Notes: a model not told the origin generated them from the letters alone. A DNA stretch of 64,000 nt from Candidatus Brocadiia bacterium (GCA_050015075.1 JBEKCB010000025.1:1-64000), one strand, 5' to 3'; shown: positions 970 to 22,091, counted from the stretch's first letter. A program made the numbers and translations.

Positions 970-2310
970 TTAACTAGCGGCTGGAGGCGTACTTATGTCC
1001 GGCGCGGGACAGATTCTGAGCAGCACTTCTCGCGGCAGCGTCGCCGCCAGGACCAGCACCTCGCACACGAGCCGGCGCATCAGCATGCAGCGGCCGGCGT
1101 GCGGCTGGGCCACGGCGCCGCAGAACTCCAGGCTTTCGCTCCGGCACGCGCCACCGCAGACGTGCCGCGCCCAGCACAGGCTGCATTCCTTCCTCGAGCA
1201 GAACCGGTTATCGAGCCACTGCCCGCGCAGCACCTCGTCAATCACCACCTGCGGCCAGGCGATGCCGATGTGCGAGTTCTGCTGCTTGTGGCAAGCGTAG
1301 ATCAGCCCGGTCGGCCCGACGCTGTAATACCCGCGCCCCGCGCCGCATTCGCTCGGCCGGAACTCCTGCCACAGGATGCGCCGGAGCGTCTTCTCGAGGT
1401 ACTGCCAGCGCGGCGGGGCGCCCGACCGCGCGCGCGCGCCGAACCAGTTGCACGCGCTGCGGATTTCGGCGTCGAGCGTATGTCCGTATGCGGCGCCGGC
1501 GACTGGTTCGAGCGCGACGCCGGCGGCGAGTCCCTGATCGCACAGTTCGTTGAGCGCGCCGAGCCGCGCGAGGACGTCCGCCGGCATTCCACTCCAGGTC
1601 CCGCGCAGGACGATCCGTCCGGAGCATCCGGCGCGATGGAGCCGGCTCAGCCCGCGCCGCATCGCCGCGTAACTGCCAGTGCCGCGCGCCTCGTCGTGCA
1701 GTCTGGGCGTCCCGTCGCAACTGACGATGATCGAGAACCCATGCTTGGCCAGGAACCGCGCCACGATCGGCGTCACCAGCGTCGCGTTCGTGGTGACGTG
1801 GAACACGGCGCGGCGTTTATCCATCTCGGCGAGTCGCTGCGCCATTTCAGTAATCGTCGAGAGCATCCCGAAGTGCATCAGCGGCTCGCCGCCGAAAAAC
1901 CCGATCCGCAGGTCGCGGCCGTCGCCAGGGAACATTCTCAGCGCGGCGGAGGCGATGTCGCGGGTCATCACCGGCGGCTCGGCGTCATCCTTGGCAATCC
2001 AGCAGTATTTGCACCGCAGGTTGCACTGATCGGAGAGATGGAGCGTGAGCTGCCGGCAGGACACATCCGGGCTGAGATCGAACTTCGGCCGCCGCTTCGA
2101 GAACAGCAGCCCCGCAGCAAAGCCCTCTGGGACCGCACGCTGAAGGGCCAGCGCCTGGTGCTGCGCCTTCGAGATCTCGACCGCGACCAGCGTGTTCGCG
2201 TCGAACGCGATGACGCTGTCCTCGCCCACCGTGACGTAATGCACGTCCGGCGCGCAAAGCTCCGTCGCGCCGCGTGGCCGCACCTGCAGATTGAGAATGT
2301 GCGGCGTCAT
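970..2310 (-). CDS. Radical SAM/SPASM protein, ranthipeptide (SCIFF/CteB)-maturase-like
   Basis: CNLRCKYC, FFGGEPL, TTNATL and SPASM motifs CGAG...IYACH...CSLCWARHVCGGAC; short N-terminal RRE-like beta segment; ATGA overlap with the upstream gene places the start at 2310. Confidence 0.85.
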   Translation of the reverse strand: MTPHILNLQVRPRGATELCAPDVHYVTVGEDSVIAFDANTLVAVEISKAQHQALALQRAVPEGFAAGLLFSKRRPKFDLSPDVSCRQLTLHLSDQCNLRCKYCWIAKDDAEPPVMTRDIASAALRMFPGDGRDLRIGFFGGEPLMHFGMLSTITEMAQRLAEMDKRRAVFHVTTNATLVTPIVARFLAKHGFSIIVSCDGTPRLHDEARGTGSYAAMRRGLSRLHRAGCSGRIVLRGTWSGMPADVLARLGALNELCDQGLAAGVALEPVAGAAYGHTLDAEIRSACNWFGARARSGAPPRWQYLEKTLRRILWQEFRPSECGAGRGYYSVGPTGLIYACHKQQNSHIGIAWPQVVIDEVLRGQWLDNRFCSRKECSLCWARHVCGGACRSESLEFCGAVAQPHAGRCMLMRRLVCEVLVLAATLPREVLLRICPAPDISTPPAAS

Positions 2311-3095
2311 GCCGTCCTCATCCTTCCCATACACTCCCATTCCTCCCACGTCCGTTTCGGATCGTACTCGACCACGTTCCACGGCTGGACCATCCACGGC
2401 TGCGGCTTGAAAGTGTAGCGCGCGCGCCAGGCGGCCGGCGTGGCGACGTACAGATGCCGCTTCGGCCAGGGCGAGACGATGCCGCGCCCGACGTAGTCCT
2501 CGCCGGGATAGTTGAACCCGCGCTTCGCGTCGAACTTCATTCCCGGCCGCCAGACCGCGAGCGTGACCTGCGGCCTGTGATACTTCGCATGGATCGAGGC
2601 GTCGCGGATGACGTGATCGCCGTCGCCGACGCAGACGAGCACCGGGAACTCCACACAGAGCGCGGGCTTTTTCACCGCAGAGGCGCGGAGGTCGCTGAGA
2701 ACGGCGGCTTTTGCATTATCAGGAACGCCGTCCTCTGCGTTCTCCGCGCCTCCGCGGTCCATCAAAGCAATGATCTCCTCGATGTTCGGCGGCAGCAGCT
2801 CGTCGGCGTCGGGAAAGAGCACCATCTCCGGCCGCGCCTTGTCCATCAGCGCGAACAGCCGCGCGTGCAGCTCGTGCCCGACCGCGATCGCGTTGGCGGC
2901 GTTGTAGGGAATATCCACGCGGGCGACCTCTGCGAGTTTCGGACAGAGCTGGACGTTGCACATCACTTCCCGCGGCGGTTCGCCGTTGACGAGAATGAAC
3001 AGCGCATCCACGTGCCGCGCCAGGTCGGAGATGATCTGCTCCGCAAACTGCGCCTGCACGCCCTGGTGAATCGTCATCGCGCCGGCGAGTCTCAT
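2307..3095 (-). CDS. Putative GT-A fold glycosyltransferase
   Basis: VLFPDADE DxD motif; operon context; contains an in-frame palindromic insert at about 2673-2758. Confidence 0.55.
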   Translation of the reverse strand: MRLAGAMTIHQGVQAQFAEQIISDLARHVDALFILVNGEPPREVMCNVQLCPKLAEVARVDIPYNAANAIAVGHELHARLFALMDKARPEMVLFPDADELLPPNIEEIIALMDRGGAENAEDGVPDNAKAAVLSDLRASAVKKPALCVEFPVLVCVGDGDHVIRDASIHAKYHRPQVTLAVWRPGMKFDAKRGFNYPGEDYVGRGIVSPWPKRHLYVATPAAWRARYTFKPQPWMVQPWNVVEYDPKRTWEEWECMGRMRTA

Positions 3096-3118
3096 CGCTT
3101 CTCCCTCAATCCAGGCTT

Positions 3119-3197
3119 AACCACGGAATACACGGAACACACGGAAGCTGTTTTTCTCCGTCCCTTCATTTCCGTGTTTTCCGTGTATTCCGTGGTT
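3119..3197. repeat. Intergenic palindromic element (AACCACGGAATACACGGAA...TTCCGTGTATTCCGTGGTT)
   Basis: 19-bp perfect inverted arms built from ~9-bp subrepeats. Confidence 0.75.
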
Positions 3198-3201
3198 GAC
3201 A

Positions 3202-4089
3202 TCAGTCGTTTCCGTCACAGTAGCGCGCGAGCAGTTGATGCAGTTCCAGCGCCTCGTACTCGCTTAATCCGGACCGGCAGTGCGCGAGCAGATCACGGTA
3301 GCGCGGGCGGATGTCGGCCGGCGTCAGCGGCGTCTTGCCGTCGCCCGGATCGGTCTGTAGCTTTCGCCACGCCGCGTCGCGCTGCGCCAGCGTCGCATCC
3401 CAGGTCTCGCGCGGCGAGGAGCCCAGCGGCGCGCTCGCATGCGTGAAGTCGCCGCGCCAGCTATAAATGTAACTCGCGCGCGCACCGACCTCCGTCGTCG
3501 CCAGCCCGAACTCACCGAGCGCGTCGAGCAGCTTCCGGTGTTCGTTGCCGCTGGCAGTTCCATAACCATGGTGCTTCACGAAGCCGCGCGCGAGAATCAT
3601 TGAGGCTTCGTAATTGTTCACGTTCAGTTTGTACTCGCCGGTTGCCGTGAAGTGAATCCACGATCGCGCCGGCTTCCAGCCGAAAGGAATGGTGGAATGC
3701 ACGTCAATCCGATCGTAGCCCTTAGCGAGATCCTCGCCCCTCCTTGCTGCGGCTAACTGCTGCACTGCCTGCGAAAGATGCCACGGCAACCAGGCGTCGT
3801 CATCATCCCACGTGTGCACGAACTCGAACTCGTCGCCGACCTTCCCGAGAAGCCGGTTTCGCGGGATGCCCGGCTCGTCGCTCGGCTCGTTGAAGACCGT
3901 CACATCAGGCAGCTCGCAGCGAAGCGGCACGGGATGATTGTTGAGGATGAACAGCCGCTTCGCCGGATAATCCTGCGCCAGGAAAAACGCCAGGCATTCC
4001 CGCATCCGCTGGAAGCGGCCGTACGTGCAGGTCAGGCACGCGACCAGAGGAAGTGCAGACTGCGGACTGCGGACTGCGGGATCGGTCAT
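3202..4089 (-). CDS. Glycosyltransferase family 2
   Basis: VACLTCTYGR...FLAQDYP...RN...TWDDDDAWLPWHL; ATGA overlap places the start at 4089. Confidence 0.85.
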   Translation of the reverse strand: MTDPAVRSPQSALPLVACLTCTYGRFQRMRECLAFFLAQDYPAKRLFILNNHPVPLRCELPDVTVFNEPSDEPGIPRNRLLGKVGDEFEFVHTWDDDDAWLPWHLSQAVQQLAAARRGEDLAKGYDRIDVHSTIPFGWKPARSWIHFTATGEYKLNVNNYEASMILARGFVKHHGYGTASGNEHRKLLDALGEFGLATTEVGARASYIYSWRGDFTHASAPLGSSPRETWDATLAQRDAAWRKLQTDPGDGKTPLTPADIRPRYRDLLAHCRSGLSEYEALELHQLLARYCDGND

Positions 4090-6101
4090 GGCTTCTCCAT
4101 CCTCCATTTCGCCGCGACGGCGGGATCGTGCGTGTGCTCGTAGGTCAGCGCCGGATCGGTCGGCGTCCACCAATTGGCTTTGCCCTCGAAGCTCTGTCGG
4201 CACGGCAGCGGCAGCCAGAGCTTCGTGAGGCCGAGGCGCTCGATCTTCGCCGTCCAGATGCGCTCGAGGACCGCGCCGGCGCCGAGCGGCGCGACCTCGG
4301 AATCCTCCGGCCAGGTGCGCGCGAGGAAATCCGTCCGCGCGGCGAAGACCTTCGTGACCGTGCATTTGTTGTCGCAGATTCCCGTGACCAGCGCCGCTCC
4401 TTGAGCGGAGGACATCGCGCGCCGCACCATCTCCTGCGCCCAACCCGGACGCGGATGGAACACGTCCGCGCCGATCTTCACGACCCATTCAAATCCACCG
4501 CCGCGGGCCTGCGCAGTGGCGGCGCGGACGGCGCGCCTCTCGCCGACCGGCAGTCCGGGATTGGCGCCGGTTTCGATGACGTTGATGCCGGAGACTTCAG
4601 GCCAGCCGCGAATCGGGCTCGCATCGCCGACGACGCAGAGCGCGATCTCGTCCGCTCCGGAGGCGCGCGCCGATTCCAGGCAGCGGTCGAGAATCTGCCG
4701 CTTCTCCTCCAGCGTCGCCGCGTTGGAGCTCGTGCCGTCATCGGCCGAAATCGTAATCGCCAGAAGAATCTTCTTTCCCTGGTTCAGCGTCTTGTCCTCC
4801 GCGCCCTGGACGCGCGTCTCGCGGTCGGCAGCGATCCGGCGATCCAGCTCGGCGAGCAGTTCGTCGGAGTTCAGCTTGAACCGGCTTTGAGCGTCGGCGC
4901 GGTAGCGGTTAAATTCGTCGGTCTCAACCTGCGCGAGGACGTGCTCGGGGATCGCGCCGTGCGGCCCCTGTCCTGCCGCCAGCCGCGCGCGGTAATCCTC
5001 CCAGTGCGCGTCGTCCAGCACCAGCCGCCACGCGGCCGCGTAGCCGAGCCACGTCCCGTTCTCCATCGTCGTGCCGAACGGCACGCTCACGCCGGTCTTC
5101 GAACCGCGGAAGAGATGCCAGAGCGCGACGCCGTCATGGAACAGGATCGGCACCTGGTGCGCCGCGGCCAGGAGCGCGACGGCGAGTTCCTGCGCGCCGT
5201 GGAAATTCGGCAGCGCCGGCCAGCCGCCGAACCGGTCGAGGACCGTCCTCGGGATCGCGTAGAACGCGCCCATCATCAGCGAGGTCGGCCAGAGCTCGAG
5301 CTTCGGCAGGTCCGGCCGCCGCTTCATCCAGCGTCCGCCGAGCATTCCCTTCTCCGGCACCAGGCACGCGCCGGCGCGCCCGCACGTGAACATGCAGCCG
5401 CCGTACACAATCGCCTGGCGCTCCAGCGCCGCCGCGGCCAGCGTGCGCAGCTTGTGCGGCCGGTCCAGCATCTCCTTGAACTCCGGCCTGACCGGCCCGA
5501 TTTCGGGATACCGCGTCGCGAACCAGCACGCCGTCTCCCAGTCGAGCGCGTTGTGCGCGTCGAGGAAGATCACCACGTCGCCGCTCGCGCGCAGCGCGCC
5601 GAGCCGCCGCGATCGCGGACCGCCGATCCGCGTCGGATTGCGGATGGCCGAGACCGGCTCCGGGACGGTCGAGCCGTCGTCCACCACAATGATCTCGGCG
5701 TCCGGACAATCGTGCTTGACGCTGGCGACGGTCGCGACGAGGTTCTCGCGCTCGTTGAGGCTGGAGATCACAACGGAAATAGACGATGGACGAGAGACGA
5801 TGGACGATTGCACGGCAGCCGATGGCATCTGCGCCGCCTTCATCTCGACCAGCATCTTCTCCTTGCACGGCGCGCAGTTCGTCAGATCCTTCCGGCCTTC
5901 GAAAATGTCCGCGCCGGCCCATTTCTTTTTCGGGCAGTTCGAGTCCGGGCCGCCCATGAACGCGTGGTCCATCACCAGCCACTTCGCGGAGTCCGTCCCC
6001 GGCGCGGCGCAGAGCTTGCGGTGGATTCCCGTCGCCGGGTTCATGCTCTGCTGGTGCTCGAACTCGCATCGGACGCAGATTTGTGCTCGGCTTGGGTTCA
6101 T
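4086..6101 (-). CDS. Multidomain glycosyltransferase: Cys-rich N-terminus, GT2/GT27 (ppGalNAc-T)-like domain, second GT-like domain
   Basis: ISVVISSLNE, IIVVDDGS, RRLGALRASGDVVIFLDAH (DxH), MGAFYAIPR..LDRFGGW, WHLFR; start at 6101 just after the tail-tip gene stop. Confidence 0.8.
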   Translation of the reverse strand: MNPSRAQICVRCEFEHQQSMNPATGIHRKLCAAPGTDSAKWLVMDHAFMGGPDSNCPKKKWAGADIFEGRKDLTNCAPCKEKMLVEMKAAQMPSAAVQSSIVSRPSSISVVISSLNERENLVATVASVKHDCPDAEIIVVDDGSTVPEPVSAIRNPTRIGGPRSRRLGALRASGDVVIFLDAHNALDWETACWFATRYPEIGPVRPEFKEMLDRPHKLRTLAAAALERQAIVYGGCMFTCGRAGACLVPEKGMLGGRWMKRRPDLPKLELWPTSLMMGAFYAIPRTVLDRFGGWPALPNFHGAQELAVALLAAAHQVPILFHDGVALWHLFRGSKTGVSVPFGTTMENGTWLGYAAAWRLVLDDAHWEDYRARLAAGQGPHGAIPEHVLAQVETDEFNRYRADAQSRFKLNSDELLAELDRRIAADRETRVQGAEDKTLNQGKKILLAITISADDGTSSNAATLEEKRQILDRCLESARASGADEIALCVVGDASPIRGWPEVSGINVIETGANPGLPVGERRAVRAATAQARGGGFEWVVKIGADVFHPRPGWAQEMVRRAMSSAQGAALVTGICDNKCTVTKVFAARTDFLARTWPEDSEVAPLGAGAVLERIWTAKIERLGLTKLWLPLPCRQSFEGKANWWTPTDPALTYEHTHDPAVAAKWRMEKP

Positions 6102-6103
6102 GT

Positions 6104-9082
6104 TCAACTCGGGGTTAGCGTGTAGGTGATTCCGTGGACTTCGATCACGAACGTTGACATGCAATCGTACTTGCCGTCGGTGGTTGCCGGAGCGTAGTTG
6201 CCTTCCCAGCCGGCGCCGCCAATCGGAGTTATGCCGAGCCGGACTTCCCAAAGATCGAAGATGACACCTGCGGTGAGGCCATTGCTGAGTTGCGCGGCAA
6301 AGGTGCAGTGGCCTTCGGTCAAAATCAGTGTTCCGCTCGATCCATCCGATCCCGTCAGACGAATACTTGCCGGAGTCGCGCCCGAGCAGGCGTCACAGCC
6401 GACCGGCGAGGTCGGCGGCGAGGTCGGAGCCGACGTGTGCGCCGCGGTATGAGCTGCCGTAGGCGCGGACGTGTGCCCGGCGGTCGGCTCGGAGGTCGCC
6501 CCCGACGTGTGCGCTTCGGTCGGCTCGGACGTGTGCGCTTCGGTCGGCCCCGACGTGTGTTCTTCGGTCGGCGCGCTCGTCGGCGGCGAAGTCGGCGCGC
6601 CGGTGTAGGGCGATGTCGGCGCTGGAGTGCCCGATGGAGTCGTCGCCGGCGGCGTACCCTCCGCCGTCGTCTCCAGAGGCGTCGTGTCGTTCGGTGTCGT
6701 CTCGCCCGGCGTCGTCCCCGGCTCGCTGCCCGGCTCCGTCGAGCCGCGAAGCACGATCCCGTTCAGCTCGAATTGCGTCGTGCAGAAAAGCTCGCAGCCG
6801 ATCTGGCAGCTTGTCTCGCAGGCCCAGCAGCCGCCCGGCGGCATCGCCTCGGCGAGCGTGTCGCAGACGCCGGACGGGAAATACGGGATCTCGGCGCTGA
6901 GCTTGATTCCCGGCACCGCGCGGTTCGATCCGCCGCCGAGCGTGTGCTCGATGCCCACCACGCGCGCGACCTGGCCCGCTCCGAACCAGCCGGCCAGGTC
7001 GAGGTCGAACAGGTCGTACGGTTCCGCGTCGAGCCGCCGCAGCGAGTCCACCAGCGCGATCTGCTGCCAGATGTACTGCCAGCGGTTCAGCCAGAAGTTC
7101 GCCACGCCCTGCACCGGCGCCAGGCTCGCGTACGCCCAGAAGTCAATCGTCTTGGCGATGCGGCCGCCGACGAACTCCTCCGCCGCCGGCGACCGAAGAA
7201 TTATCGTCCGCCGCACCGCGTTGTCAATGTACGAGCCGGTGATCTCCGTGACGATCTGGTTCCATTCCCGGCGCGCGATGTCCAGCGAGCCGAGATAACG
7301 ATCGGCTCCGGACGTCGGCGGCGTGCCGGTTGGGACCATGACGTTGGTCAGGTAGATCAACTGCGCCTGGCCGGCGAAGAAGACCTCGGCGCAACGCGCC
7401 TGGAACGCGAGATCGGCGCAGAGTTCGAGTCCCTTCTTCTGCTCGGTCAGCGCGAAGCCCATCAGCAGCGCCGCCGTCGCCGTCTTCGCCGCGGCGAAAG
7501 AATCGGCGTCAATGTTGTCGCTCGTCATGCCCATCCAGCGCGTGTGGATCGCCTGGATGATGTCGGAGGGATTCTGCAAGAGCGTCCCGGTCCCGTCGCC
7601 GACGCTCTCCACGCCGTCGAGCGTGATCCACAGGTCGTCGTTCTTCATCCGGATATCGAGCTGCGACGGCGGCAGGCTGAACGTGATGCTCGTCACCGCG
7701 CGGCCCGGGCACGTGGCCGTGTCGTTGTAGTTGATCGTGTAGAGCGAAGGATCGAGCGCGAAGTACCATTCCGTCGGCGTCGTCCAGATCTGTCCGTTGA
7801 TCCACAGGCTCAGCGGATGGCCATAGCCCTCGACGCTGTAAACCTTCTTTGAAGGCGCGTCATTGACCACGTAAGTGTAGTTCGAACGCGCGACGTAGAC
7901 CTTCGATCCGCACGGATGTCCGGCCACGTTGCTGCCGATCTGGTACGTCGCGCCGATCGGCAGCGTGTACGTATGGCCGGCGTTCGTGAACGCGTCGCCG
8001 ATCCACGTCGTCTGCGTCGGATCGAGCGGGTTGACGTAGGCGAATCCGCTCAGCATGCCGAAGACGATGGTGTGCGTGGCCGAGTCGTAGCTCTGGATGA
8101 TCTTCCGCTGCACCGTGCCGTCCGGCGACGTGAAGAGAATGTAGTAGCCGACGTAGGTGCCGTCCGGACCGGTGAGCGCGCTGTCCACCAGGTGCTGGCA
8201 ATCCACGCCGAGCGCGGTGACCGTGCCGGTGTAGAGCGGCGCGCCGCGCTCGGTGATGCTGAAGAAGTTGCCGTTGAACTGCCCGTTGATCCGCTCGCCG
8301 CCGATCCAGATCTCCATCGGCGTGAGCTGCGGGAAATACTCCGCGTCGTTCACGTACAGGCCCATGTCGAAGTAGTTGCAGACCCGCGCCAGCTCGGTCA
8401 CCGGCCCGAAATCCACCGCCACCGCGCGCGCACGCATGACGTGGCCGAAGACCAGCGGGATCAGCTTGTTCTCGTCAGTCTGGACCACGTTCGGGCAGTC
8501 CAGCCGGTCGGCGAAATTTCCGACCGTGCGGTTGAAATAGGTCGAGATGTCCGTGATGTCCAGCAGCACCGCGTGGTCCCGCTCGCTCCACGTGCACGGC
8601 GCGTTGATGATGCCGACGTGGAGCTTGACCAGGTCGCTCTCGGCGTTGCCCCGGAACTGCTGATAGATTGCCACCCACGCGCGCTGCGGCTCGATGCTCT
8701 GGAAATAATTGAAGAGGACCTTGTCCTCGTCGCGCAGCTTCACCGTGCAGTCGCCGACGACGTTGACCGCCTTGTCCGCCTTGATCCCGAGCCGCACGAC
8801 GCCCCACTCGAGCACGCGCCCCTGAGCGTTGTCCCAGGACGCCCCATCGCCGGAGCCGAAATCCTCTTGCGCGTACCACTTCACCCCGACCGGCGCGGCC
8901 GGAGGCAGCGTCGGTCCGCCGCTCGTCGTCGCTCCGGTCTCGGAGACCGTCGGCTCGCCCGGCGCAATGAGAATCGGCGCCGTGCTGCCGCCGGCCGCAG
9001 GCCAGGAAATCTGCAGCAGGCAATACGGCTTGCTGCTCTCGGAGTCCGCCGCGGCGATTGTCGAAGATGTTAGTGTGCGCAT
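6104..9082 (-). CDS. Phage tail-tip/baseplate hub-like protein with a C-terminal six-Cys motif and mucin-like stalk
   Basis: Follows the Dit-like gene; IPLVFG and NPSDII motifs typical of tail-tip proteins; TSxPT repeats. Confidence 0.7.
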   Translation of the reverse strand: MRTLTSSTIAAADSESSKPYCLLQISWPAAGGSTAPILIAPGEPTVSETGATTSGGPTLPPAAPVGVKWYAQEDFGSGDGASWDNAQGRVLEWGVVRLGIKADKAVNVVGDCTVKLRDEDKVLFNYFQSIEPQRAWVAIYQQFRGNAESDLVKLHVGIINAPCTWSERDHAVLLDITDISTYFNRTVGNFADRLDCPNVVQTDENKLIPLVFGHVMRARAVAVDFGPVTELARVCNYFDMGLYVNDAEYFPQLTPMEIWIGGERINGQFNGNFFSITERGAPLYTGTVTALGVDCQHLVDSALTGPDGTYVGYYILFTSPDGTVQRKIIQSYDSATHTIVFGMLSGFAYVNPLDPTQTTWIGDAFTNAGHTYTLPIGATYQIGSNVAGHPCGSKVYVARSNYTYVVNDAPSKKVYSVEGYGHPLSLWINGQIWTTPTEWYFALDPSLYTINYNDTATCPGRAVTSITFSLPPSQLDIRMKNDDLWITLDGVESVGDGTGTLLQNPSDIIQAIHTRWMGMTSDNIDADSFAAAKTATAALLMGFALTEQKKGLELCADLAFQARCAEVFFAGQAQLIYLTNVMVPTGTPPTSGADRYLGSLDIARREWNQIVTEITGSYIDNAVRRTIILRSPAAEEFVGGRIAKTIDFWAYASLAPVQGVANFWLNRWQYIWQQIALVDSLRRLDAEPYDLFDLDLAGWFGAGQVARVVGIEHTLGGGSNRAVPGIKLSAEIPYFPSGVCDTLAEAMPPGGCWACETSCQIGCELFCTTQFELNGIVLRGSTEPGSEPGTTPGETTPNDTTPLETTAEGTPPATTPSGTPAPTSPYTGAPTSPPTSAPTEEHTSGPTEAHTSEPTEAHTSGATSEPTAGHTSAPTAAHTAAHTSAPTSPPTSPVGCDACSGATPASIRLTGSDGSSGTLILTEGHCTFAAQLSNGLTAGVIFDLWEVRLGITPIGGAGWEGNYAPATTDGKYDCMSTFVIEVHGITYTLTPS

Positions 9083-9088
9083 TTATCC

Positions 9089-9403
9089 TCACCCCGCCAC
9101 AACGGTTGGAGCAGGACTCTGACCATTGCAGCCAATGAACGTCCACGATCCCACGATGTTGCTCAGAGCGGTTCCGGTCGTAGAGGCCTCATAGAGCGGC
9201 TTCTGATCCGTCAATGTGTTGTCAATCACCCACCTTCCTGACGTGGAATTGTAGTGAAGGTAGATGCCGTTGCTGTTCATCCAGTAGTTCTGGCCATCGT
9301 GAGTCCCGGACTGCCGAGCATAGTTGCCATCTACGTTGGCATTAGCTGATCCGGCGCCTGAAGCGGTGTAGGCGAAGAAGGTTCTGTTGTATCCCACGAT
9401 CAT
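9089..9403 (-). CDS. Small beta-rich tail-associated protein
   Basis: ATGA-coupled to the fibre gene; visibly lower GC than neighbours. Confidence 0.6.
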   Translation of the reverse strand: MIVGYNRTFFAYTASGAGSANANVDGNYARQSGTHDGQNYWMNSNGIYLHYNSTSGRWVIDNTLTDQKPLYEASTTGTALSNIVGSWTFIGCNGQSPAPTVVAG

Positions 9404-11481
9404 GCTCTGACCACCTCCAGGGAAACCGTAACCCTCGTCACCGTGGTCGCGCTGTTCACCTTGAAGGCGATGATGTTGCCGGCGGTGAGGCTCGTGCTCC
9501 AACCGGTCAGCGTCGAGTCCTGGCTCTTCTGCGCGCTCGAGAGCGTCGGCAGGTCGGAGGCCGCGATGGAGGACGTGGTCGGGAATCCCGAATACGTGGA
9601 CGTCTGGACGTCCACGACGATGCTCCCCGACTGGTCCGCCAGCAGCGTCACGCGCTGAATCGTGCAATTGAACGGGATTTCCAGGAATCCCTTCACGCCC
9701 GTCGTGATCGCCGAGCCGCCGCCGTCAATCACGAACTCGATCGCATCCGGAAGGGCCAGCACGTCGTCGCCGCCGGTCAGGTGCGTGCTCTCGTGCGCGG
9801 TCGGCGTCCTCGCGTTGGTCAGCCTCGAATCGGACGATGCCACGATTCCGCCGTGTGCCGTCGTCGTCAAGCCGGCATGCGTGTTCAGGTTGCCCTGCAC
9901 CGTCGCCGCCGCGCCGGCCGCATCGCTCGCGGCTTCAGCCGCGCTTTCCGCAGTCGAGATCGCCGAGCCAAGCGCCGTCCGGACCGCCTTCTCGCTCGGC
10001 ACGTTGCTGTCGCTTCCCGGCGAGCCGACAGTAATGACGAGCGCGCTCGCCGCAATGCTCGCCGCCTCGGCCGCAGACTGCGCCGATGCCGCCGCGCCCG
10101 CCGCGTCGAAGGCGCTGCTGGCCTGGAACGCCGCGGTCCCGAGCGCGCCGCCGTCCTCGAGGGCCTTGCCGGTCGCGTCGGCGAACAGTACGACGTGCCC
10201 GGCCATTGACGAGTCCGGTCCGGTGACATCGCCCGATCCCAAGCCGGAAACGGAGTCCGCGATCGCCGTCCGCACCGCCTTCTCGCTCGGCACGTTGCTG
10301 TCGCTTCCCGGCGAGCCGACAGTAGTAACCAAGTCGGCAATCGGAATGCTCGCCGCCTCGGCCGCAGACTGCGCCGCAGCCGCCGCACCGGAGGCGTCCG
10401 CCCCGACATCGCTCGGACCCAGCGTCACCGCGCCGACTTTGCCGCAGACGCTCGAGACGACCTGCTGGTTGTCTATCCGGTTCCAGGACGCGCCGTTATA
10501 AGTCAACCAGTCGCCCGCGCCGTACGTCGTGCCGCTGATCGTGCCCGCGGCCGAGCAGACCCAATACTGGCCTTTCGCCGGCGATGCCGGATACGAGCCG
10601 CCGGAGCAGTCGAAAGTTCCCTGATAATCCAGCGCGCCGACAATGGCCGCCGGGAGCTGGCTCGTCGGCACCTTGCCGCTCGCATCCAGCGTGGCAACGC
10701 CGCTGTCCGCGCCGGCAGATGTCAGCGGGATGCTCGCCGCCTCCGCCGCGGCCTGGGCCGCAGCCGCCGCGCCGGCGACATCCGCGCCGATGCTCGCCGG
10801 ACTGATCGGATCGGAACCGGTGGATGCGTGCGTCGAGGCGTGCGCGGTCGGCGTCCGGGCGTTGGTGAGCCTCGAATCCGTCGCAGCCACGATCCCGCCG
10901 TGCGCCGTCGTCGTCAGGTCCGCGTGCGCGAGCAGATCGTCTTCAAGCGCGTACTCCGGCGGCGAGGTCGGCGGCGAGGTCGGGCCTGAAGTGCCCGCCT
11001 CGGTCGGCGAACTCGTCGCCCTGCCCGTCGCCGACGAAGTGGAGGCCGATCCGCTGGAAAGGTGCAGCTTGATCGTCAGTTCGTAGAATCCGCCGGAGCG
11101 CACGGTGGTCGCCACCGTGTCGCCGCCGGTGACGAAGCTGCCGGTGGAAGCCGCCTCGTCGGCGACGGTGACCGGAGCGAGCGTCGCGCTGAGGAAATAC
11201 GCCGCCCATGCGACGTTTCGCTCGTCGGTGAACGTGAACTCGTTCAGCGTGCCCTGCGCCTGGTTCTTGAAGAAACTCTGAACGTCGTTCAATTCGCTCA
11301 GGCGCAGGTTCGACCACTTCAACTCGCGCCGCGTGTCCGTCGCGTCCGCCAGCGCGAAGCGGTAGAACCCGCCGCTCGCCTTCGGCTGCACGACCTGGTG
11401 CGGATCGAGATCGAGCTGGTCGTTCAGGTCCGGGTTCTGGACCGTCGCCGTCACGCCGCCGAGAGAAAAGGAAACGCTCAT
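9400..11481 (-). CDS. Distal tail (Dit)-like domain fused to a tail-fibre-like protein
   Basis: N-terminal ...VQSFFKNQAQGTLNEFTFTD; internal duplications (TTTAHGGIVA..DSRLTNARTPTAH x2, GSPGSDSNVPSEKAVRTA x2); GVATLDASGKVP fibre motif. Confidence 0.65.
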   Translation of the reverse strand: MSVSFSLGGVTATVQNPDLNDQLDLDPHQVVQPKASGGFYRFALADATDTRRELKWSNLRLSELNDVQSFFKNQAQGTLNEFTFTDERNVAWAAYFLSATLAPVTVADEAASTGSFVTGGDTVATTVRSGGFYELTIKLHLSSGSASTSSATGRATSSPTEAGTSGPTSPPTSPPEYALEDDLLAHADLTTTAHGGIVAATDSRLTNARTPTAHASTHASTGSDPISPASIGADVAGAAAAAQAAAEAASIPLTSAGADSGVATLDASGKVPTSQLPAAIVGALDYQGTFDCSGGSYPASPAKGQYWVCSAAGTISGTTYGAGDWLTYNGASWNRIDNQQVVSSVCGKVGAVTLGPSDVGADASGAAAAAQSAAEAASIPIADLVTTVGSPGSDSNVPSEKAVRTAIADSVSGLGSGDVTGPDSSMAGHVVLFADATGKALEDGGALGTAAFQASSAFDAAGAAASAQSAAEAASIAASALVITVGSPGSDSNVPSEKAVRTALGSAISTAESAAEAASDAAGAAATVQGNLNTHAGLTTTAHGGIVASSDSRLTNARTPTAHESTHLTGGDDVLALPDAIEFVIDGGGSAITTGVKGFLEIPFNCTIQRVTLLADQSGSIVVDVQTSTYSGFPTTSSIAASDLPTLSSAQKSQDSTLTGWSTSLTAGNIIAFKVNSATTVTRVTVSLEVVRA

Positions 11482-11614
11482 TTAATTATTCCTGTAACCT
11501 CCGATGGACGCCGATGAATGCAGATAAGGCAAACGACCGAGTAATAATCCGTATCTGCGTTCATCACGCGCGCAGTACACTGCGCGCTCTGGGTCCCTCG
11601 GCGGTTAAAAAATA

Positions 11615-12166
11615 TTAAGCTGCCGTGGTCTGTTCCGAACTCGGCTCGTTCGTCGGGTTCGCCGAAGTCCGCTTGGCGACGGTCGGGCGCTCCTCGAAGT
11701 CCTTGAAGGCGACCGCCAGGATGTCGGCGTCGGCTTTTTCGGAGAACGTTTCGTTCAGTTCGTAGCACTTCTCGAAGACGATATCCTCGGCCTGCTCGCC
11801 GGTGATCGGCGAGACGCACGTGAACCGGATGCGGACGGTCCGCACGCCGCCGTCGTTGCTGGTCGAAAGCCAGGAACTCGCCGCGCCGACGCCGAACAGC
11901 GCCTCGTGCGGCGTGACCGGATAGCCCGTCGCGCTGAGGAATTCCTTGAACTTCACCTGGAACTTGCCGCTGCACGGCCTGGCCTTGCCGGCCCGGAGCG
12001 AGCTGAGATCCGTCCGGTCCATGATGGCGACGGACTCGCGCTGGGCCACGTCGAAGCACATGTCGCCTTCGTCCACGACGAGCTGGACGGCGTTGGCCGG
12101 GCTCGACCCGTCCTCGATGGTGATGATCCCATCGGCCATGTTCTTTACCACCGTCTGCTTCGCCAC
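11615..12166 (-). CDS. Putative tail tube protein
   Basis: Size (~183 aa), position, beta-rich sequence; GGAGGTGA RBS before GTG at 12166; ends ...SSEQTTAA. Confidence 0.55.
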   Translation of the reverse strand: MAKQTVVKNMADGIITIEDGSSPANAVQLVVDEGDMCFDVAQRESVAIMDRTDLSSLRAGKARPCSGKFQVKFKEFLSATGYPVTPHEALFGVGAASSWLSTSNDGGVRTVRIRFTCVSPITGEQAEDIVFEKCYELNETFSEKADADILAVAFKDFEERPTVAKRTSANPTNEPSSEQTTAA

Positions 12167-12233
12167 AACTCTCACCTCCAAAAAACGTTTTCACCACTAC
12201 GACCCGACGCGCGCGACGTACGGATTTACCAAC

Positions 12234-12545
12234 CTAGTCTTGCGTCGTGGGTTCGTCAGTCGTGGAGCCGTTCGTCGTGTCCGTAGTGGTGAGTTCCGGC
12301 GTCGTCGCGGCGGCCGGCGTGTTGGCCGAGACGGAGGCGACCAGCGCGGCCTTGTTCGTCGCCATCTGGTTCGCCAGCGACTGGATCTGGGCCTGCAGCG
12401 CCGCGACCGACTGGGCCGGCTGAGAGGCGACCGTCTGGAGCTGCGCGGTGAGCTGGTCGAGGAGCGCTTCGGCGCTCGCATCCACCGTCGTCTCGGCCGC
12501 CACAGCCTGAATGATCGGGGTAAGATCAATGCTGACCGTTGCCAT
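12234..12545 (-). CDS. Small coiled-coil phage protein with a Thr-rich tail
   Basis: AAGGAG RBS; Ala/Gln helix, then TTPELTTTDTTNGSTTDEPTTQD. Confidence 0.65.
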   Translation of the reverse strand: MATVSIDLTPIIQAVAAETTVDASAEALLDQLTAQLQTVASQPAQSVAALQAQIQSLANQMATNKAALVASVSANTPAAATTPELTTTDTTNGSTTDEPTTQD

Positions 12546-12717
12546 AGCACCAACTCCTTCCATCAAAAAGAGGATCCGTTCCACCTTCCTTCGGTCACTG
12601 CGCTTGAACACGGTACGCTCCGCGACGATGGACTATGGACGATAGACCACGCGCGGCAATCGTCCATCGTCTATCGTCCATCGTCTGCCTCCATCGTTTC
12701 TCGTCCATCGTCGCCGC

Positions 12718-12933
12718 TCACTTCGGCGCCGCCGGCGGCGAAGCGGGCGGCACAGCCGCCTTCGGCTTGAACAGCGCGATCAGCCCGACCAGCTTCGCCC
12801 AGATCCACGAGATGATGGCGCCGATCTTCGCCAGGACGTGGTCCGCGAGCACCTGGTGCAGCGCGGCGAGGATCCCGAGCACGACGCTGCTCAGCACGCA
12901 GCCGAGCAGGAACGCCACGATCAGTTGCAGCAT
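12718..12933 (-). CDS. Small membrane protein (holin-like)
   Basis: GGAGG RBS before ATG at 12933; two hydrophobic segments in 71 aa. Confidence 0.55.
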   Translation of the reverse strand: MLQLIVAFLLGCVLSSVVLGILAALHQVLADHVLAKIGAIISWIWAKLVGLIALFKPKAAVPPASPPAAPK

Positions 12934-12989
12934 CGTCGGCCTCCATTTCACAGGACGATTGACCATGGACGATGGACGATCGTCAGTGG

Positions 12990-13500
12990 CTAAAACTGCG
13001 CCTTTTGCGTCAGCACCAGCAGCGGCGCTCCGAGCATCAGGCCCAGAAGAATCACGCACACGATCAGGTCCGACCACCAGTTCAGGTCCAGCTTCCCCAG
13101 CAGGACGATAAGGAGCACACCCAAGCATTCGCAGCCGCCAACTGTCAGAAACTTCAGCCAGCCAGGACTCAAACCGAAACTGCACCTGCGTCAGAGACGC
13201 AATGCTTCCTTTCACCTGGTCGCGGAACTGGTCGGTGTCCTGCGAGGACTTCTGGATCGCATTGATGATCGCCGTGTTCTGCTGCGCGAGCGAGAGGACC
13301 TGCGCCTGGACGTCCTTGAGCGTCGAGGCGGTGGTCGAGTCCGGAGCGACCGTCTGCGCCGCCTTCTGCGCCGGCGCGGACGAACAGCCGACGGCCAAGA
13401 TCACCGCAGAGGCGCAGAGGACGCCGAGAGCGGCGAAACGCCTCAAGGCCTGATTGCCAGAACTTTCCGTCTCCGCGTTCTCCGCGTCTCTGCGGTGCAT
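12990..13500 (-). pseudogene. Lipoprotein/coiled-coil/transmembrane protein with an apparent frameshift near 13177
   Basis: Lipobox ILAVGC and coiled coil; removing one T from CAGTTTCGGTTTG joins it to the 2-TM ORF 12990-13172. Confidence 0.5.
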
Positions 13501-13512
13501 CGCCGCCTCCTT

Positions 13513-13989
13513 TCAAGAAATCCTGAACTTGCAGACCATCGTCGTCGTGAACTGCCAGAGTTCGATGTGCTTCTGCAGGGCGATCTTCGGCGCGTAGGAC
13601 GGGTTCGCGTACTCCGCCTCGGCGAACGTCGCCCCGAGGCCGAAATTGTCCGCCTGGAACTGCCGGCTCATGAAGTCCTCGAAGCCTTCGGCGAGGTCCA
13701 CGATACGGCGCGAGTCCTCGCCGGCGGTCGCCATCTCGATCAGGAACGCGGTCCGGCGCTCGAGTACGGCCGCCGGGCCGCGCTTGCACTTCGCCGGCGG
13801 CCAGTGATGCAAGTCCTCCGCCGGCCCCATCGCGAAGACCGGGCAGACCGCTGGCATGATCTCCATGCGCGTCAACACGCCCTGGCCGTTGAACCGGAAC
13901 ATCGTTCCGCCCTTCAGCAGCGCGGACATCGCGGAGTCGGCCTGCAGGCGGCTCCAGACGGCGTTCAAGACATCGGTCGAAAGGCCCAT
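13513..13989 (-). CDS. Tail completion/terminator-like protein
   Basis: AVWSRLQADSAMSALL N-terminus; lies between the gp36-like gene and the tail genes. Confidence 0.55.
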   Translation of the reverse strand: MGLSTDVLNAVWSRLQADSAMSALLKGGTMFRFNGQGVLTRMEIMPAVCPVFAMGPAEDLHHWPPAKCKRGPAAVLERRTAFLIEMATAGEDSRRIVDLAEGFEDFMSRQFQADNFGLGATFAEAEYANPSYAPKIALQKHIELWQFTTTMVCKFRIS

Positions 13990-14030
13990 CAGAATCTCTC
14001 CCAAAGCCGAGTGCGAATCCGGTGCGGCAT

Positions 14031-14456
14031 TCAAAAACCACGAGTCTGGCGGCGCGTGAACTGCCGCCGGCGGCCGGAGGCCTTTGCGCCGTGGAAGCGG
14101 TCGCCGCGGTCGTCGGCCTTCGGCTCGCCGAGCGACGCCTGGCCCTGGCCGACTTGCTCCAGGAACGCCACGTCGCGGTCATAACCGTTCTTCACCTCGT
14201 CGGGCAGCGACTGCCGGCCGAGGTACAGGTAGTACAGCGCCAGGCGGACGGCGATGCTCAGCAGCATCGGCGGCACGGTCGCCAGCGGCAGCGGATACTG
14301 CGGCGAGATCAAGCCGTCAATCAGCGACGACGCCTGGTCGCACGCGGCCTGCAGGACCGTGTTGTTCGGCGAGCCGGTCCCGCCCAGGTCGCTGAGTTGC
14401 GTCAGTTCGGCGGTGGTCTTGACGTTCGCCAAGTCAGTCGGAGCGCAATAGCTCAT
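14031..14456 (-). CDS. Mu gp36-like head-tail connector (DUF1320)
   Basis: MSYC..DL...EL.QL, ASSLIDG...YPLPL..VP..L...A..LALYYLY, Y...FLEQV..G..SLG pattern. Confidence 0.85.
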   Translation of the reverse strand: MSYCAPTDLANVKTTAELTQLSDLGGTGSPNNTVLQAACDQASSLIDGLISPQYPLPLATVPPMLLSIAVRLALYYLYLGRQSLPDEVKNGYDRDVAFLEQVGQGQASLGEPKADDRGDRFHGAKASGRRRQFTRRQTRGF

Positions 14457-14539
14457 CGGTTACTCCATTGCGGATTTCGGAATGCGGACTGCGGAATTCA
14501 ATCCGCAATCCGCACTCCGCACTCTGCACTCTGCACTCG

Positions 14540-15481
14540 TTACGCCGCGGTCGTCGGGGCGCCGGAAGTGCCCTGCGAGCCGTAGGCGAGCCACCACGCG
14601 ATGGCCTTCACTGCGCCGCGGTAATCCATGCCGAAGTCGAAGCGCTTCTGGTAGAAAACGTTCGGGTCGTCGAGCTTCACCATCGGCGTCAGCGCCAGCG
14701 GCCGGCGCACCTGGTTGACCACCGGCTTGATCGGCTTCGAGCAGTCCAGCATCATCCACTGGTTGCCGGTCCACATCGGCATCTTGATCTGGTTCTCTTT
14801 CGGGAACTTCCCGTAGAGCGTCTGGCTGATCTGGCTGGAGTTGGCCAGCGGCACGTTGAAGAGCTGGTCCACGGCCTGCTCCAGCGCCGGCGAGAACAGG
14901 AAGTGCGTCGGCTGGACCAGGAGCACGATGCCGTCCGGTCCGACGAAGGTGCTCATCTGCTTGATGCCCGCGTAGACCGCCGCGGCCGAGAGGTATGCCG
15001 TCGTCAGGTTCGACTGCGGAGCGCCGGCGGCGCCTTTCATCCCCTGCCAGACGTGCGAGCTGGAGAAGAACGGCACGCCGTCGAAACCGACCGACTCGGC
15101 GAAGGCGCCGACGCCGAGTTCGTCCTGCACCTGCAGCCACGGCTCGAGCACGCCGAGCGCGGCCTGCTGCTGGATCGCCAGCGCGTATGCCCCCGTCACG
15201 TCGTCCTCGATGTCCTCGCGCGGCACGCCGATCGTGTGCTCGAAGGTCAGGTTGCGGACGCTCGCCTCGAACGCGGCCAGGTCCTGGATCACGCGGTCCT
15301 TCACCCACTCGCGCATGCGTCCGGTCAGCGCGGCGACCGGGTAGTGCTCGATGCGCGTGGACGACGGCACCGCCGAGGCGATGTCGTCAATCCGGGTCTT
15401 CGTGCGCTCGAGCGTCTGCTGAAAAATGGTGTTGAACGACACCCACAACGCCTCCAGCGTTGCGGCATTGACTACTGCCAT
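14540..15481 (-). CDS. Mu-like major capsid protein (gpT family)
   Basis: VPSST..EHY...MREWV.DR, FEHTIGVPREDIEDD..G.Y, FDGVPFFS..H, W.MLD.SKPIKP, W.LAYGS; AGGAG RBS. Confidence 0.92.
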   Translation of the reverse strand: MAVVNAATLEALWVSFNTIFQQTLERTKTRIDDIASAVPSSTRIEHYPVAALTGRMREWVKDRVIQDLAAFEASVRNLTFEHTIGVPREDIEDDVTGAYALAIQQQAALGVLEPWLQVQDELGVGAFAESVGFDGVPFFSSSHVWQGMKGAAGAPQSNLTTAYLSAAAVYAGIKQMSTFVGPDGIVLLVQPTHFLFSPALEQAVDQLFNVPLANSSQISQTLYGKFPKENQIKMPMWTGNQWMMLDCSKPIKPVVNQVRRPLALTPMVKLDDPNVFYQKRFDFGMDYRGAVKAIAWWLAYGSQGTSGAPTTAA

Positions 15482-15571
15482 TGCGTCATCTCCTAAAAAA
15501 ATTCCTGTGCTACACAATCGGCAATCGGCATTCCTGTCGCGCAAGCGCGACACGGGCAATCTGCAATTCCG

Positions 15572-16024
15572 TTAGGCCGCCGTCGTCGGCGCACTGGTCA
15601 CCGGCAGCGCCGGCTCGACGTACGCGCCGCGCATGTCCACCAGCACTCCGTATCGGTCCACCGACTTGATGCGGCCCGCATACGTGTTCGTGCCGGCGGT
15701 CAGCGTCACGGTGTGATCGTCGGCGAAGTACGCCGGCTGGCCGACGCTCGCCTGCGTCAGCGTCGCGGCCGAATCCCAGTACGCGGCCTCCGGCGTGATG
15801 ATCTCCACGGTCTCAGCGCCGGCCGCGCCGGCGGAATTGTCCACCGTCTCGTCGGCGATGCCGCGGAAATGCCTCACGCCCGGGCCGGCCGGAACCGCAA
15901 AGCCGCCCGAGTTCAGCCCCACCGCGGCGCCGTTGAAGATCTGCGTCGCGGCGGCCACGGGCGCCTCGTCGCGGTGCAGCTCGTCCACGAACTCCGTGTC
16001 CCGATCCGACGTCAAGTTGCTCAT
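15572..16024 (-). CDS. Capsid cement/decoration protein
   Basis: PVAAAT.IF.GA.V...G.AVP, GIADETVDN..GAAG, VGQPAYFADDHTV; lies between protease and capsid. Confidence 0.8.
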   Translation of the reverse strand: MSNLTSDRDTEFVDELHRDEAPVAAATQIFNGAAVGLNSGGFAVPAGPGVRHFRGIADETVDNSAGAAGAETVEIITPEAAYWDSAATLTQASVGQPAYFADDHTVTLTAGTNTYAGRIKSVDRYGVLVDMRGAYVEPALPVTSAPTTAA

Positions 16025-16075: not shown

Positions 16076-17350
16076 TTACCCAACCATCCGCCGCTTCGTC
16101 GCCAGGAACTCCGCCTCCTTCAGCCCCGCCTGCTCGCAGGCCCAGCGGTCGGCGTCGGAGAGGACCGGCGTCTCGGCGGCGGCCTGGGCGCCGGCGGCGC
16201 TCGTCGCGCCTCCGAGCACCGGCGGCATGCTGTTGAGGATTTCCCGTGCGCCCTCGAAGTCCTGCATCGCCAGCCGGATGAACGCCTCCCGGTTCGCCGG
16301 GGTGATCTTCCGCTCGACGGAGATCGCGTTCTCGATGAGCTTCTCGGCCGCCGACTGCGCCGGCATCGCCCGGCTCGCGCCGATCAGCGCCAGCAGCTCG
16401 GCCAGCGGCCTGTCCGGCGTCGCGCCGAGCGCGTTGCAGATCGAGAGCAGCTTCACATCCGCATCGCTCGTAGAGGCGCCGTCAGGCGCTACTTTGAGCT
16501 TGTCGAGTGCCGCCTTGATCGCGGCCTCGTCGGCCGTCTCCGCCACGCCGAGCGAGCTGGCGAAGACCTTCACCTGGATGGACGCGCGCGTGCCGGCGTC
16601 CATCAGGGTCATGAGCGCTCTGCCGATTACGTCCGCCTTGGCGTCTTCCGCGACGCCCAGGCTGTTGGCGACGGTCTTCGCGTCAAGCGCGGGAGCGCCT
16701 GCGCGCCCCTCGTTCATGGCCGCCGCCAGCAAGGCGAGCAAATTCTGCATGGCTCCGCCCTCCTCTTCTGCGACGGCTGAATCGGGAGCGCCGGTGCGCT
16801 CCTCTGCCAATCCGGCGGCGGCGGCGTCGCTGTTCGCCACGGCCGGAAGCGCCTTCTTGAACGGACGGTTCGTCAGCGCCACGGAATCGAGCACCCACCG
16901 GATGATCCGGCCGGTGACCGGGTCCTTGTAATCCTTCAGCAGGTGCGAGCTGAGGTAGCGGAATTTCCTCTCGCGGATCAGCGCGCGCGCGTCGGCCACC
17001 CACTTGATGTGCGCCCACAGTTCGGTATCGTTGTTCCGCCCTTCGAGGGAATTGATCCAGCCGCCGGACTCGGCGCTCTTGCCGAGCAGCTTGGCGACCA
17101 CGCCCTGATGCTCGTAGTCCACCGGCAGGTCCACGCCGTTCGCGCGGCAGGCCTGGTTGAAGTACTCGACGATGCAGCGGATGTCCGCCGGCGTCAACCG
17201 GTACGCGCCGGCCGGGTGGCCTTCCCACTCGCCTTGCAAATCCACCTGGTACCAGCCTTCGGCCGGGACGCCGTTCGGCCCTGAGCTCACGTCCGAAGGG
17301 TCGGCGGGAAGCGCACCGGCGGAGTTGCTGAGCTGTTCCCGGTTTTCCAT
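16076..17350 (-). CDS. Mu-like prohead protease/scaffold (gpI)
   Basis: LPVDYEH, GWI..LE, LWAHIKW, RYLS, SVALTNRP motifs; helical scaffold C-terminus. Confidence 0.9.
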   Translation of the reverse strand: MENREQLSNSAGALPADPSDVSSGPNGVPAEGWYQVDLQGEWEGHPAGAYRLTPADIRCIVEYFNQACRANGVDLPVDYEHQGVVAKLLGKSAESGGWINSLEGRNNDTELWAHIKWVADARALIRERKFRYLSSHLLKDYKDPVTGRIIRWVLDSVALTNRPFKKALPAVANSDAAAAGLAEERTGAPDSAVAEEEGGAMQNLLALLAAAMNEGRAGAPALDAKTVANSLGVAEDAKADVIGRALMTLMDAGTRASIQVKVFASSLGVAETADEAAIKAALDKLKVAPDGASTSDADVKLLSICNALGATPDRPLAELLALIGASRAMPAQSAAEKLIENAISVERKITPANREAFIRLAMQDFEGAREILNSMPPVLGGATSAAGAQAAAETPVLSDADRWACEQAGLKEAEFLATKRRMVG

Positions 17351-17352
17351 GG

Positions 17353-22002: not shown

Positions 22003-22091
22003 CAATAACTCCTTCCAGGCTTTGGAGCACCCTCTGCACCCGCCTTCGCTAAAGCTACGGCGGGCAAGCTCTGCACTCATGAAGCTCTCTG

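Follow-up and report, generated by a model that had tools for sequence, protein, structure and literature searches.

We analysed a stretch of 64,000 nucleotides from a Candidatus Brocadiia bacterium (GCA_050015075.1 JBEKCB010000025.1:1-64000; hereafter the window), which is contig C25 of a 4.64-Mb genome (G000, 94% complete), together with its counterpart in a sister species of the same genus (G001, 91% complete) and related loci in other genomes and viral contigs. The window carries a module of 21 minus-strand genes, running from 22080 down to 295 and all with open frames, in which phage structural genes are followed directly by a cassette of glycosyltransferase (GT) and radical SAM/SPASM genes. 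Two candidate enzyme-substrate pairs, GTs with Thr-rich protein tails and a radical SAM enzyme with a Cys-rich motif, occur apart elsewhere and meet only in the lineage of the window, and the module, which stays at one chromosomal site, is transmitted vertically and is subject to purifying selection. That it encodes a domesticated particle which is both glycosylated and thioether-stapled is a reading to which we give an even chance.

Both chemistries had been proposed before for one Mu-like virion (the initial annotation), and the gene layout behind that proposal holds. The four cassette genes are open on the minus strand and the structural operon runs straight into them, the stop of the hub gene (6104) and the start of the first GT gene (6101) lying 2 bp apart; the two ATGA overlaps (4086-4089 and 2307-2310) are real and a third was found at 9400-9403. 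The tails rich in Ser, Thr and Pro are real as well, with TTAA ends on the capsid, decoration and tube proteins only: among the 3,820 open reading frames (ORFs) that our own gene caller found in the genome, three end in TTAA (0.12 expected), and these encode the capsid protein gpT, the decoration protein and the tail tube. The pattern CxxCxxxCxxxCxxxC is found in just one of these ORFs, that of the hub, and no other ORF reaches its Ser/Thr/Pro content in a 100-residue window. The enzymes and their candidate substrates are given here; the ratio of non-synonymous to synonymous substitution (dN/dS) was obtained throughout by a simple counting method, which cannot tell present function from slow decay.

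4086..6101, minus strand: GT2a, with a Cys-rich N-terminus, a domain like polypeptide N-acetylgalactosaminyltransferase (ppGalNAc-T; D181, H183, E305, H329) and a second, uncharacterised domain (profiles, motifs)
3202..4089, minus strand: GT2b, a GT-A glycosyltransferase with a WDDDD motif, probable chain extender (homologues beside GT2a-like genes in viral contigs)
2307..3095, minus strand: GT-like protein with a DAD motif (Atlas features 0.95 to viral clusters; no Pfam match)
970..2310, minus strand: radical SAM/SPASM enzyme from a clade that is associated with phage tails and close to CteB (sequence, fold, tree)
15572..16024, minus strand: head decoration protein ending in PVTSAPTTAA, a candidate glycosylation site (phrog_1731, E 5e-34; tails in relatives)
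14540..15481, minus strand: Mu-like major capsid protein gpT ending in GTSGAPTTAA, a candidate glycosylation site (PF10124, 167 bits; dN/dS 0.06)
11615..12166, minus strand: probable tail tube with a 16-residue extension ending in EQTTAA (34-36% identity to the phage-contig gene that precedes chaperones and tape measure)
9400..11481, minus strand: distal-tail-like domain (~140 aa), S/T/P linker and fibre (N-terminus 37% identical to the phage gene between tape measure and hub; PHROG tail matches elsewhere)
6104..9082, minus strand: tail-tip hub protein, 992 aa (fold matches to T5, DT57C and lambda tail-tip chains)
6782..6865, minus strand: six-Cys motif C740-C767 (CDTLAE...CWACETSCQIGCELFC), candidate thioether substrate (11 of 11 close hubs; Cxxx arrays in distant ones)
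6404..6757, minus strand: mucin-like stalk, candidate glycosylation region (31 Thr, 14 Ser and 23 Pro in 120 residues)

Glycosyltransferases and Thr-rich tails

GT2a passes the Pfam GT2 model (64.5 bits), GT2b matches it weakly (16.7 against a cut-off of 23.3), and the Atlas look-alikes of the GT-like protein are viral clusters, one with 34% GT2 members. Profiles of GT2a, made with its homologues from f5 (a family of the same class) or with 27 stand-alone relatives, both ranked 15 ppGalNAc-T sequences of the PDB first (E 1e-15 and 8e-22, respectively). Residues D181, H183, E305, H329 and R332 are invariant in 20 sequences and align with the motifs DxH, GGENL and GHVFR, which supply metal and sugar ligands. 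No membrane anchor was seen in GT2a and, in Pfam, no ricin-type lectin domain; its N-terminus is a Cys-rich module. A tblastn search with GT2a and one relative gave no match in 50,697 GenBank phage records, a single-protein GT2a search gave none outside G000 in 400 sampled genomes of the phylum, and P0035 as a query found no viral contig.

Comparison with relatives links the enzyme to the tails. The 16-residue tube extension is absent from four phage tubes that lack GT2a, and two viral contigs with a tape measure (L189 and L191) carry GT2a-like genes together with Thr tails on the tube and on other structural proteins; all nine distinct f5-type decoration ends listed have 5-7 Ser or Thr among their last 12 residues. 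In the mechanism that we propose, GT2a, as a soluble enzyme, would add the first sugar (probably an N-acetylhexosamine) to Thr or Ser in the exposed PTTAA-type tails of capsid, decoration and tube proteins and would also prime the T/P stalks of hub and fibre, after which GT2b and the GT-like protein would extend this first sugar. Provided that the genes are expressed, we regard such priming and extension as likely. It is very improbable that the target of the GTs is instead the host surface, for serotype conversion or receptor masking, with the Thr tails as unmodified linkers: PHROG classes weak GT matches as morons, and in the related locus L062 the tails persist without GTs, but GT2a is nearest to protein-acceptor enzymes and not to polysaccharide GT2s, the GT genes are translationally coupled to the structural operon, and GT2a and Thr tails are found together in unrelated phage contigs.

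The radical SAM/SPASM enzyme and the six-Cys motif

The best match of the radical SAM/SPASM enzyme is CteB, both in sequence (E 2e-29) and in fold (whole-chain TM 0.78), and its CxxxCxxC cysteines (C96/100/103) and SPASM cysteines (C322/340/376/379/385/389/408), aligned to CteB, are invariant in 14 sequences. Near the N-terminus, residues 23-56 form three strands and one helix, the helical part being shorter than expected for the recognition element of enzymes that act on ribosomally synthesised and post-translationally modified peptides. None of the NCBIfam maturase cut-offs was reached (TIGR03974, the SCIFF maturase, 128.9 bits against 425; TIGR04115, 41.1 against 350), and the TIGR04114 repeat target had no match on the contig of the window, hub included. 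In a FastTree of 96 enzymes the protein nests in a tail-associated clade (support 0.993) that stands apart from TIGR04115.

The SCIFF-like motif of six Cys reported in the initial annotation is present in the hub, the sixth (C740) sitting 12 residues N-terminal of the five-Cys run, although the Pfam SCIFF model stayed under its cut-off (13.5 bits against 27). Every one of the 11 close hubs retains the six Cys, and the residues at i+5 are E, T/N, Q, E, T and E/M/Q. Precisely at the position of motif and stalk, more distant hubs have long Cxxx arrays, with runs of up to 50 Cys, and from these sequences the motif of the window appears to be the remnant of a longer array. Of the array-end Cys in the distant hubs (n=110, kin not being independent), 51% are followed by E or Q at position +5, whereas the share is 10-24% at +3, +4 and +6. 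The i+5 pattern of E, Q and T fits the Cys32-Thr37 link that the available text of PMC8326336 gives for SCIFF peptides, next to a reported Cys32-Thr34 (i+2) link.

A radical SAM gene of the clade lies downstream of the hub in 17 of the 17 assessable distinct loci with Cys-bearing hubs, a count that includes the window and one locus where the gene is cut by the contig end; nine loci were too short downstream to assess (L037, L040/80, L061, L066, L068, L070, L071, L075 and L078) and five repeat-only matches (L082, L085-L088) were dropped. Three hubs are Cys-less, one in G028 and two in G004 (88% complete), and neither genome has a match to the clade radical SAM enzyme; downstream of the G028 hub there is no such gene, and the stalks of the G004 hubs are purely PT, that genome also carrying a GT2a-like gene. 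We propose that the enzyme would act on the six-Cys motif, where hub core and stalk meet, and form Cys-to-carbon thioethers there, most simply between Cys(i) and the gamma-carbon of E, Q or T at i+5, and that these would stiffen the root of the stalk. We consider this rather probable.

A different use of the motif is unlikely: glycosylation would be real, with the six Cys binding a metal or Fe-S cluster or forming disulfides, and with the radical SAM enzyme as a passenger from the ancestral long-array phage or engaged in other chemistry on the motif. Lambda gpL binds an Fe-S cluster at the tail tip, the motif is short and starts with CxxC, the maturase cut-offs were not reached and the motif is not confidently structured in the model. 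The enzyme nevertheless retains all ten cluster Cys with a dN/dS of 0.29-0.37 in three comparisons, L062 keeps enzyme and motif though its GTs are lost, and the Cys-less hubs go without the enzyme. A complex prediction of the enzyme with hub residues 715-790 scored 0.00 and is no evidence either way.

Other radical SAM genes were seen in passing. A separate prophage remnant on contig C48 (L001:5652-10747), not present in G001 and with a related fragment on C60, encodes a 736-aa tail protein with a very long Cxxx array, a clade radical SAM enzyme 32% identical to that of the window, a GT9 and, after the radical SAM and GT9 genes, a lipoprotein of the same type as in the window (52% paralogue). 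Three tandem clade-related radical SAM genes (L194/L201/L202, G005 contig C73) stand in a non-phage setting, and in L093:10001-11716, L095:10001-14464 and L090:9872-12313 clade radical SAM domains lie within much longer frames, possibly inteins or fusions.

Both pairings gain independent comparative support, and each half has a precedent. Of all loci examined, those in the lineage of the window (L060, L064 and, with a cut gene, G001) are the only ones that hold a ppGalNAc-T-like gene together with a radical SAM gene of the clade. The N-terminus of GT2a records a fusion: its residues 1-70 match the small Cys-rich protein encoded before GT2a in f5 and L191 (E 1e-8), whereas for residues 69-94 the match is to an N-terminal extension found on two radical SAM enzymes that are associated with hubs (E 1e-7 and 4e-5). 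We infer that the GT cassette entered a hub-radical SAM operon as the T/P stalk replaced most of the Cys array.

Type and inheritance of the module

Only head and neck of the module are Mu-like, with portal, protease, gpT and gp36 of Mu type (PF06074, PF10123, PF10124 and PF07030), and the tail is of siphovirus type. Host genes flank the module, and neither the Mu transposase family PF09299 nor a tape measure (PF10145 and a related one) was found in G000 or G001; a recognisable endolysin was not found either. The hub has no family match and its profile gave nothing against PDB sequences, but the model of residues 1-790 (pLDDT 82.5) has its best fold matches (E 2e-18 to 1e-10) in tail-tip chains from the phages T5, DT57C and lambda, with the RcGTA tail-tip chain 6TBA among the matches; since the model matches siphovirus tail-tip chains, we name the 992-aa protein, on that model, a siphovirus tail-tip hub. 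Its residues 894-992 (6107-6403), past the stalk, form a small variable C-terminal domain with CxxC and two further Cys that is swapped wholesale among relatives and is a possible receptor-binding tip.

In the viral contigs L037-L041 the order is tube, chaperones, tape measure, small distal-tail gene and hub homologue. Tube and distal-tail gene, 2.3-3.6 kb apart in related phages, are separated by 133 bp in the window, by 63 bp in G001 and by 115 bp in L062, a comparison based on these three assemblies, which share the deletion while their capsid proteins are 96-98% identical; contigs of four other peat metagenomes cover 30 of 30 bins of 3500-23400, with no listed piece spanning the gap. The labels tube, distal tail and terminator follow position and homology to phage contigs, not family matches. 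With hub or gpT as a single query no viral contig was found. The C48 prophage was considered as a source of a tape measure in trans and rejected, since it is not in G001.

The module of G001 stands beside the same host genes as that of the window, and that of L062/L063 has the same EF-hand flank. Synonymous divergence (dS) between window and G001 is 0.10-0.57 for 18 module genes, against 0.12-0.37 for seven host neighbours, and dN/dS is 0.06-0.39 in 17 of the 18 (terS 0.89); capsid (0.06) and portal (0.10) are both under the seven neighbours (0.13-0.68). From shared neighbours and flank, host-like dS and low dN/dS we conclude that the module is passed on vertically at one site and kept by purifying selection, and it is best explained as a domesticated, non-replicating phage structural module. 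The phrase "one Mu-like virion" needs correction, because the module is chimeric, tape-measure-less and vertically inherited and the assembly of a tailed particle is uncertain. The remaining features are as follows.

21595..22080, minus strand: first module gene, putatively holin-like, with a C-terminal hydrophobic helix (weak phrog_937 match, E 0.003; 93% identity to G001)
21120..21563, minus strand: Mu-type small terminase-like DNA-binding protein (terS, DUF1804-like; dN/dS 0.89; two stand-alone genome paralogues)
20815..21069, minus strand: 84-aa helical protein between the terminase genes (90% identity to G001)
19047..20732, minus strand: large terminase, open frame (phrog_38, E 7e-54; dN/dS 0.29)
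17353..18795, minus strand: Mu-type portal (PF06074, 277 bits; dN/dS 0.10)
16076..17350, minus strand: Mu I protease/scaffold (PF10123)
14031..14456, minus strand: Mu gp36 head-tail adaptor (PF07030)
13513..13989, minus strand: probable tail terminator (position; homologue between gp36 and tube in f5 modules; no family match)
12718..13500, minus strand: putatively spanin-like lipobox protein with a coiled coil and C-terminal hydrophobic helices (sequence; 52% paralogue on C48)
12234..12545, minus strand: small coiled-coil protein, Ala-rich and with a tail rich in Thr (95% in G001; missing from L062)
11482..11614, no strand: 133-bp gap in place of chaperone and tape-measure genes (comparison with related phages)
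9089..9403, minus strand: small, variable 104-aa protein (37% identity to G001)
295..795, minus strand: EF-hand protein flanking the module (also after the module in L062/L063)
18887..18968, minus strand: AAGCGCACT array, five copies followed by TTATAAT, before the portal (second array at 22136-22217; both at the same places in G001)

The small terminase-like paralogues (L003:7501-8013, 40%, and L004:9617-10105, 34%) stand among host genes, and the EF-hand protein, with a single EF-hand, has a 48% paralogue on C3. The lipobox gene (12718-13500) is overlapped by a hydrophobic ORF in another frame, and in L062 the lipobox gene is split into separate genes; lipobox, hydrophobic helices and overlapping ORF presumably form a spanin-like layout. 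Host palindromic repeats lie in frame inside the terminase (~19961-20075) and the GT-like gene (2661-2760). The AAGCGCACT arrays were rejected as module-specific operators because the repeat is dispersed host-wide (14 clusters in the genome, one of them preceding the stand-alone terS paralogue on C29); they may be portable promoters. A consensus promoter and terminator scan gave a signal no higher than shuffles. The sequencing runs that contain the DNA of the window are peat and wetland metagenomes, with no RNA run listed among them.

For the particle we propose that a Mu-like head and neck were joined to a siphovirus tube, distal-tail/fibre protein and hub, with chaperones and tape measure deleted and the two modification systems derived from different phages; this would yield a head that is glycosylated and bears a stub tail, like a gene transfer agent in its genetics. 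That such a particle is made seems to us somewhat more probable than not. We think it unlikely that the module is instead a slowly decaying prophage remnant that forms no particle, with enzymes idle or acting on host proteins. Tape measure, chaperones, transposase and a recognisable endolysin were indeed not found, host repeats have inserted into genes and in G039 the GTs outlive the structural genes; but 21 of 21 frames are open, capsid and portal are more constrained than the host neighbours, three assemblies with nearly identical capsids share the deletion, and a parallel single-copy module is found across many f5 genera. Expression of the genes as separate parts, namely glycosylated heads that serve as a compartment or as a tailless transfer agent, and hub/tube complexes that act at the surface or resemble tailocins, so that no particle has both chemistries, is also decidedly unlikely. 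The missing tape measure and chaperones would agree with this, as would the missing 198-aa morphogenesis-type gene that in L191 lies between gp36 and terminator, but adaptor, terminator, tube, distal-tail domain and hub are retained under selection, which fits a joined stub.

Several points weigh against a doubly modified particle. The evidence lies in genes, their homologies and co-occurrence, synteny and selection; the limit of the dN/dS method was given above. A normal siphovirus tail is not expected to assemble without a tape measure. Most f5 capsid proteins have no tail despite GT2a; L062/L063 keep TTAA tails and stalk with no GT at the locus (to which examination was confined), a regulator-like gene and a methyltransferase standing where the three GTs would be; G039 retains GT2a and GT2b after losing head and tail genes, and G053 has both in another context. 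Two of nine clade radical SAM loci of the viral scan (L090 and L094) are without a nearby run of at least five Cys, more distant relatives of the enzyme (221-285 bits) occur outside phage settings in six genomes of the class, the motif, with six Cys left of dozens, is under selection no stronger than that on the hub core, and the linkage made by CteB is itself disputed (i+5 or i+2). The co-occurrence expected of enzymes, tails and motif is thus borne out for radical SAM genes with Cys hubs, but not for the tails of L062/L063 or the GTs of G039.

Loss of the tape measure was also seen elsewhere in the class, in seven of the eight f5 genomes with a visible tube region and in G041, G002 and G004, and this recurrence argues that such modules do something. 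The f5 family has a second, single-copy Mu-like module (portal ~42% identical) in many genera, with an 80-aa coiled-coil gene in the tape-measure place, a Thr-tailed decoration protein and GT2a/GT2b homologues, and without radical SAM (e.g. L044/L045, L046, L048, L050, L053, L058 and L059); among 31 f5 genomes, 20 have a Mu portal, 19 GT2a, 17 both and none the clade radical SAM gene. In G031 (L208/L209) a version of this module has a tape measure. Chromosomal phage modules without a tape measure before the hub were further seen at L076/L174 (G002), L176 (G004), L077, L065 and L213 (G041), some of them with HK97-type heads. It is possible, and we suggest it only tentatively, that uncultured Brocadiia have repeatedly domesticated phage modules by deletion of the tape measure, that of the window giving a stub-tailed, mucin-coated and thioether-rooted host organelle, in which an initiating O-glycosyltransferase of eukaryote type is combined with RiPP-type chemistry on a structural protein, and a minimal six-Cys model for a putatively widespread cross-linking of phage tail fibres.

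Relation to known systems

If our reading is true, virion construction would gain enzyme-made thioether cross-links as a further known means, and in GT2a prokaryotes would have a soluble relative of the mucin-initiating enzymes, with acceptors tagged by five residues. The 28-residue motif with one enzyme would be a test case, small and soluble, for the numerous phage contigs in which radical SAM genes are paired with long Cys arrays. A head-plus-tip module without tape measure, in parallel within one class, raises the questions whether a tail that has no ruler is functional and to what use these bacteria put the particle. We found no literature on thioether-modified virion proteins, ppGalNAc-T-like phage enzymes or this element, in a search that left most subscription journals outside.

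Glycosylation of mycobacteriophage virions is reportedly O-linked and C-terminal. For capsid and tail tube it is the precedent, with Che8, Corndog and Myrna as examples and GT genes linked to the structural genes, according to the available parts of PMC12363180, PMC11256854 and PMC4351075. The window resembles these phages, as far as those texts go, in the linkage of GT to structural genes, in capsid and tube as likely acceptors and in the methyltransferase of related cassettes; it differs in its Planctomycetota host, in the hub and fibre stalks as additional candidate acceptors and in GTs that are coupled to a radical SAM gene within a non-replicating element. Che8 gp110 may already have been described as ppGalNAc-T-like (Freeman et al. 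2023). The catalytic domain of GT2a is matched end to end by ppGalNAc-Ts (CAZy GT27; GalNAc-T2, 2FFU, and T1, 1XHB), with DxH, the downstream Glu and H-x-x-R invariant; unlike them, GT2a has a Cys-rich N-terminus and a second domain, no anchor or lectin domain seen and a His in place of Trp before G-x-x-E.

With the SCIFF/ranthipeptide maturases CteB (5WGG) and PapB the radical SAM enzyme shares the three-plus-seven Cys pattern, and the hub motif has SCIFF spacing; unlike in those systems, the candidate substrate is internal to a 992-aa virion protein with no recognised leader, and there is no separate ~45-aa six-Cys precursor gene (PF13165, 13.5 bits against 27). For a protein as target, QhpD and CrpC are the precedent (PMC8326336, PMC13692751, in the parts available): they install ranthionine links in proteins, phage not being mentioned in the available part of PMC13692751, and chemistry of this kind is also treated in the available part of PMC5682303. 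The pairing of radical SAM genes with Cxxx arrays is not new in databases, being known from TIGR04115/TIGR04114, in which a radical SAM gene likewise stands beside CXXX repeats; 10 of 31 viral enzymes scanned, picked from loci at hand, pass TIGR04115. The enzyme of the window belongs to another clade below that cut-off, and the hub has no TIGR04114 match. The description of the TIGR04115 model is reported to mention long phage proteins.

RcGTA has a short tape measure. Unlike it, the module of the window has a Mu-like head, no tape measure and a modification cassette of its own; with gene transfer agents it shares structural and packaging genes without replication genes, a fixed site and purifying selection.

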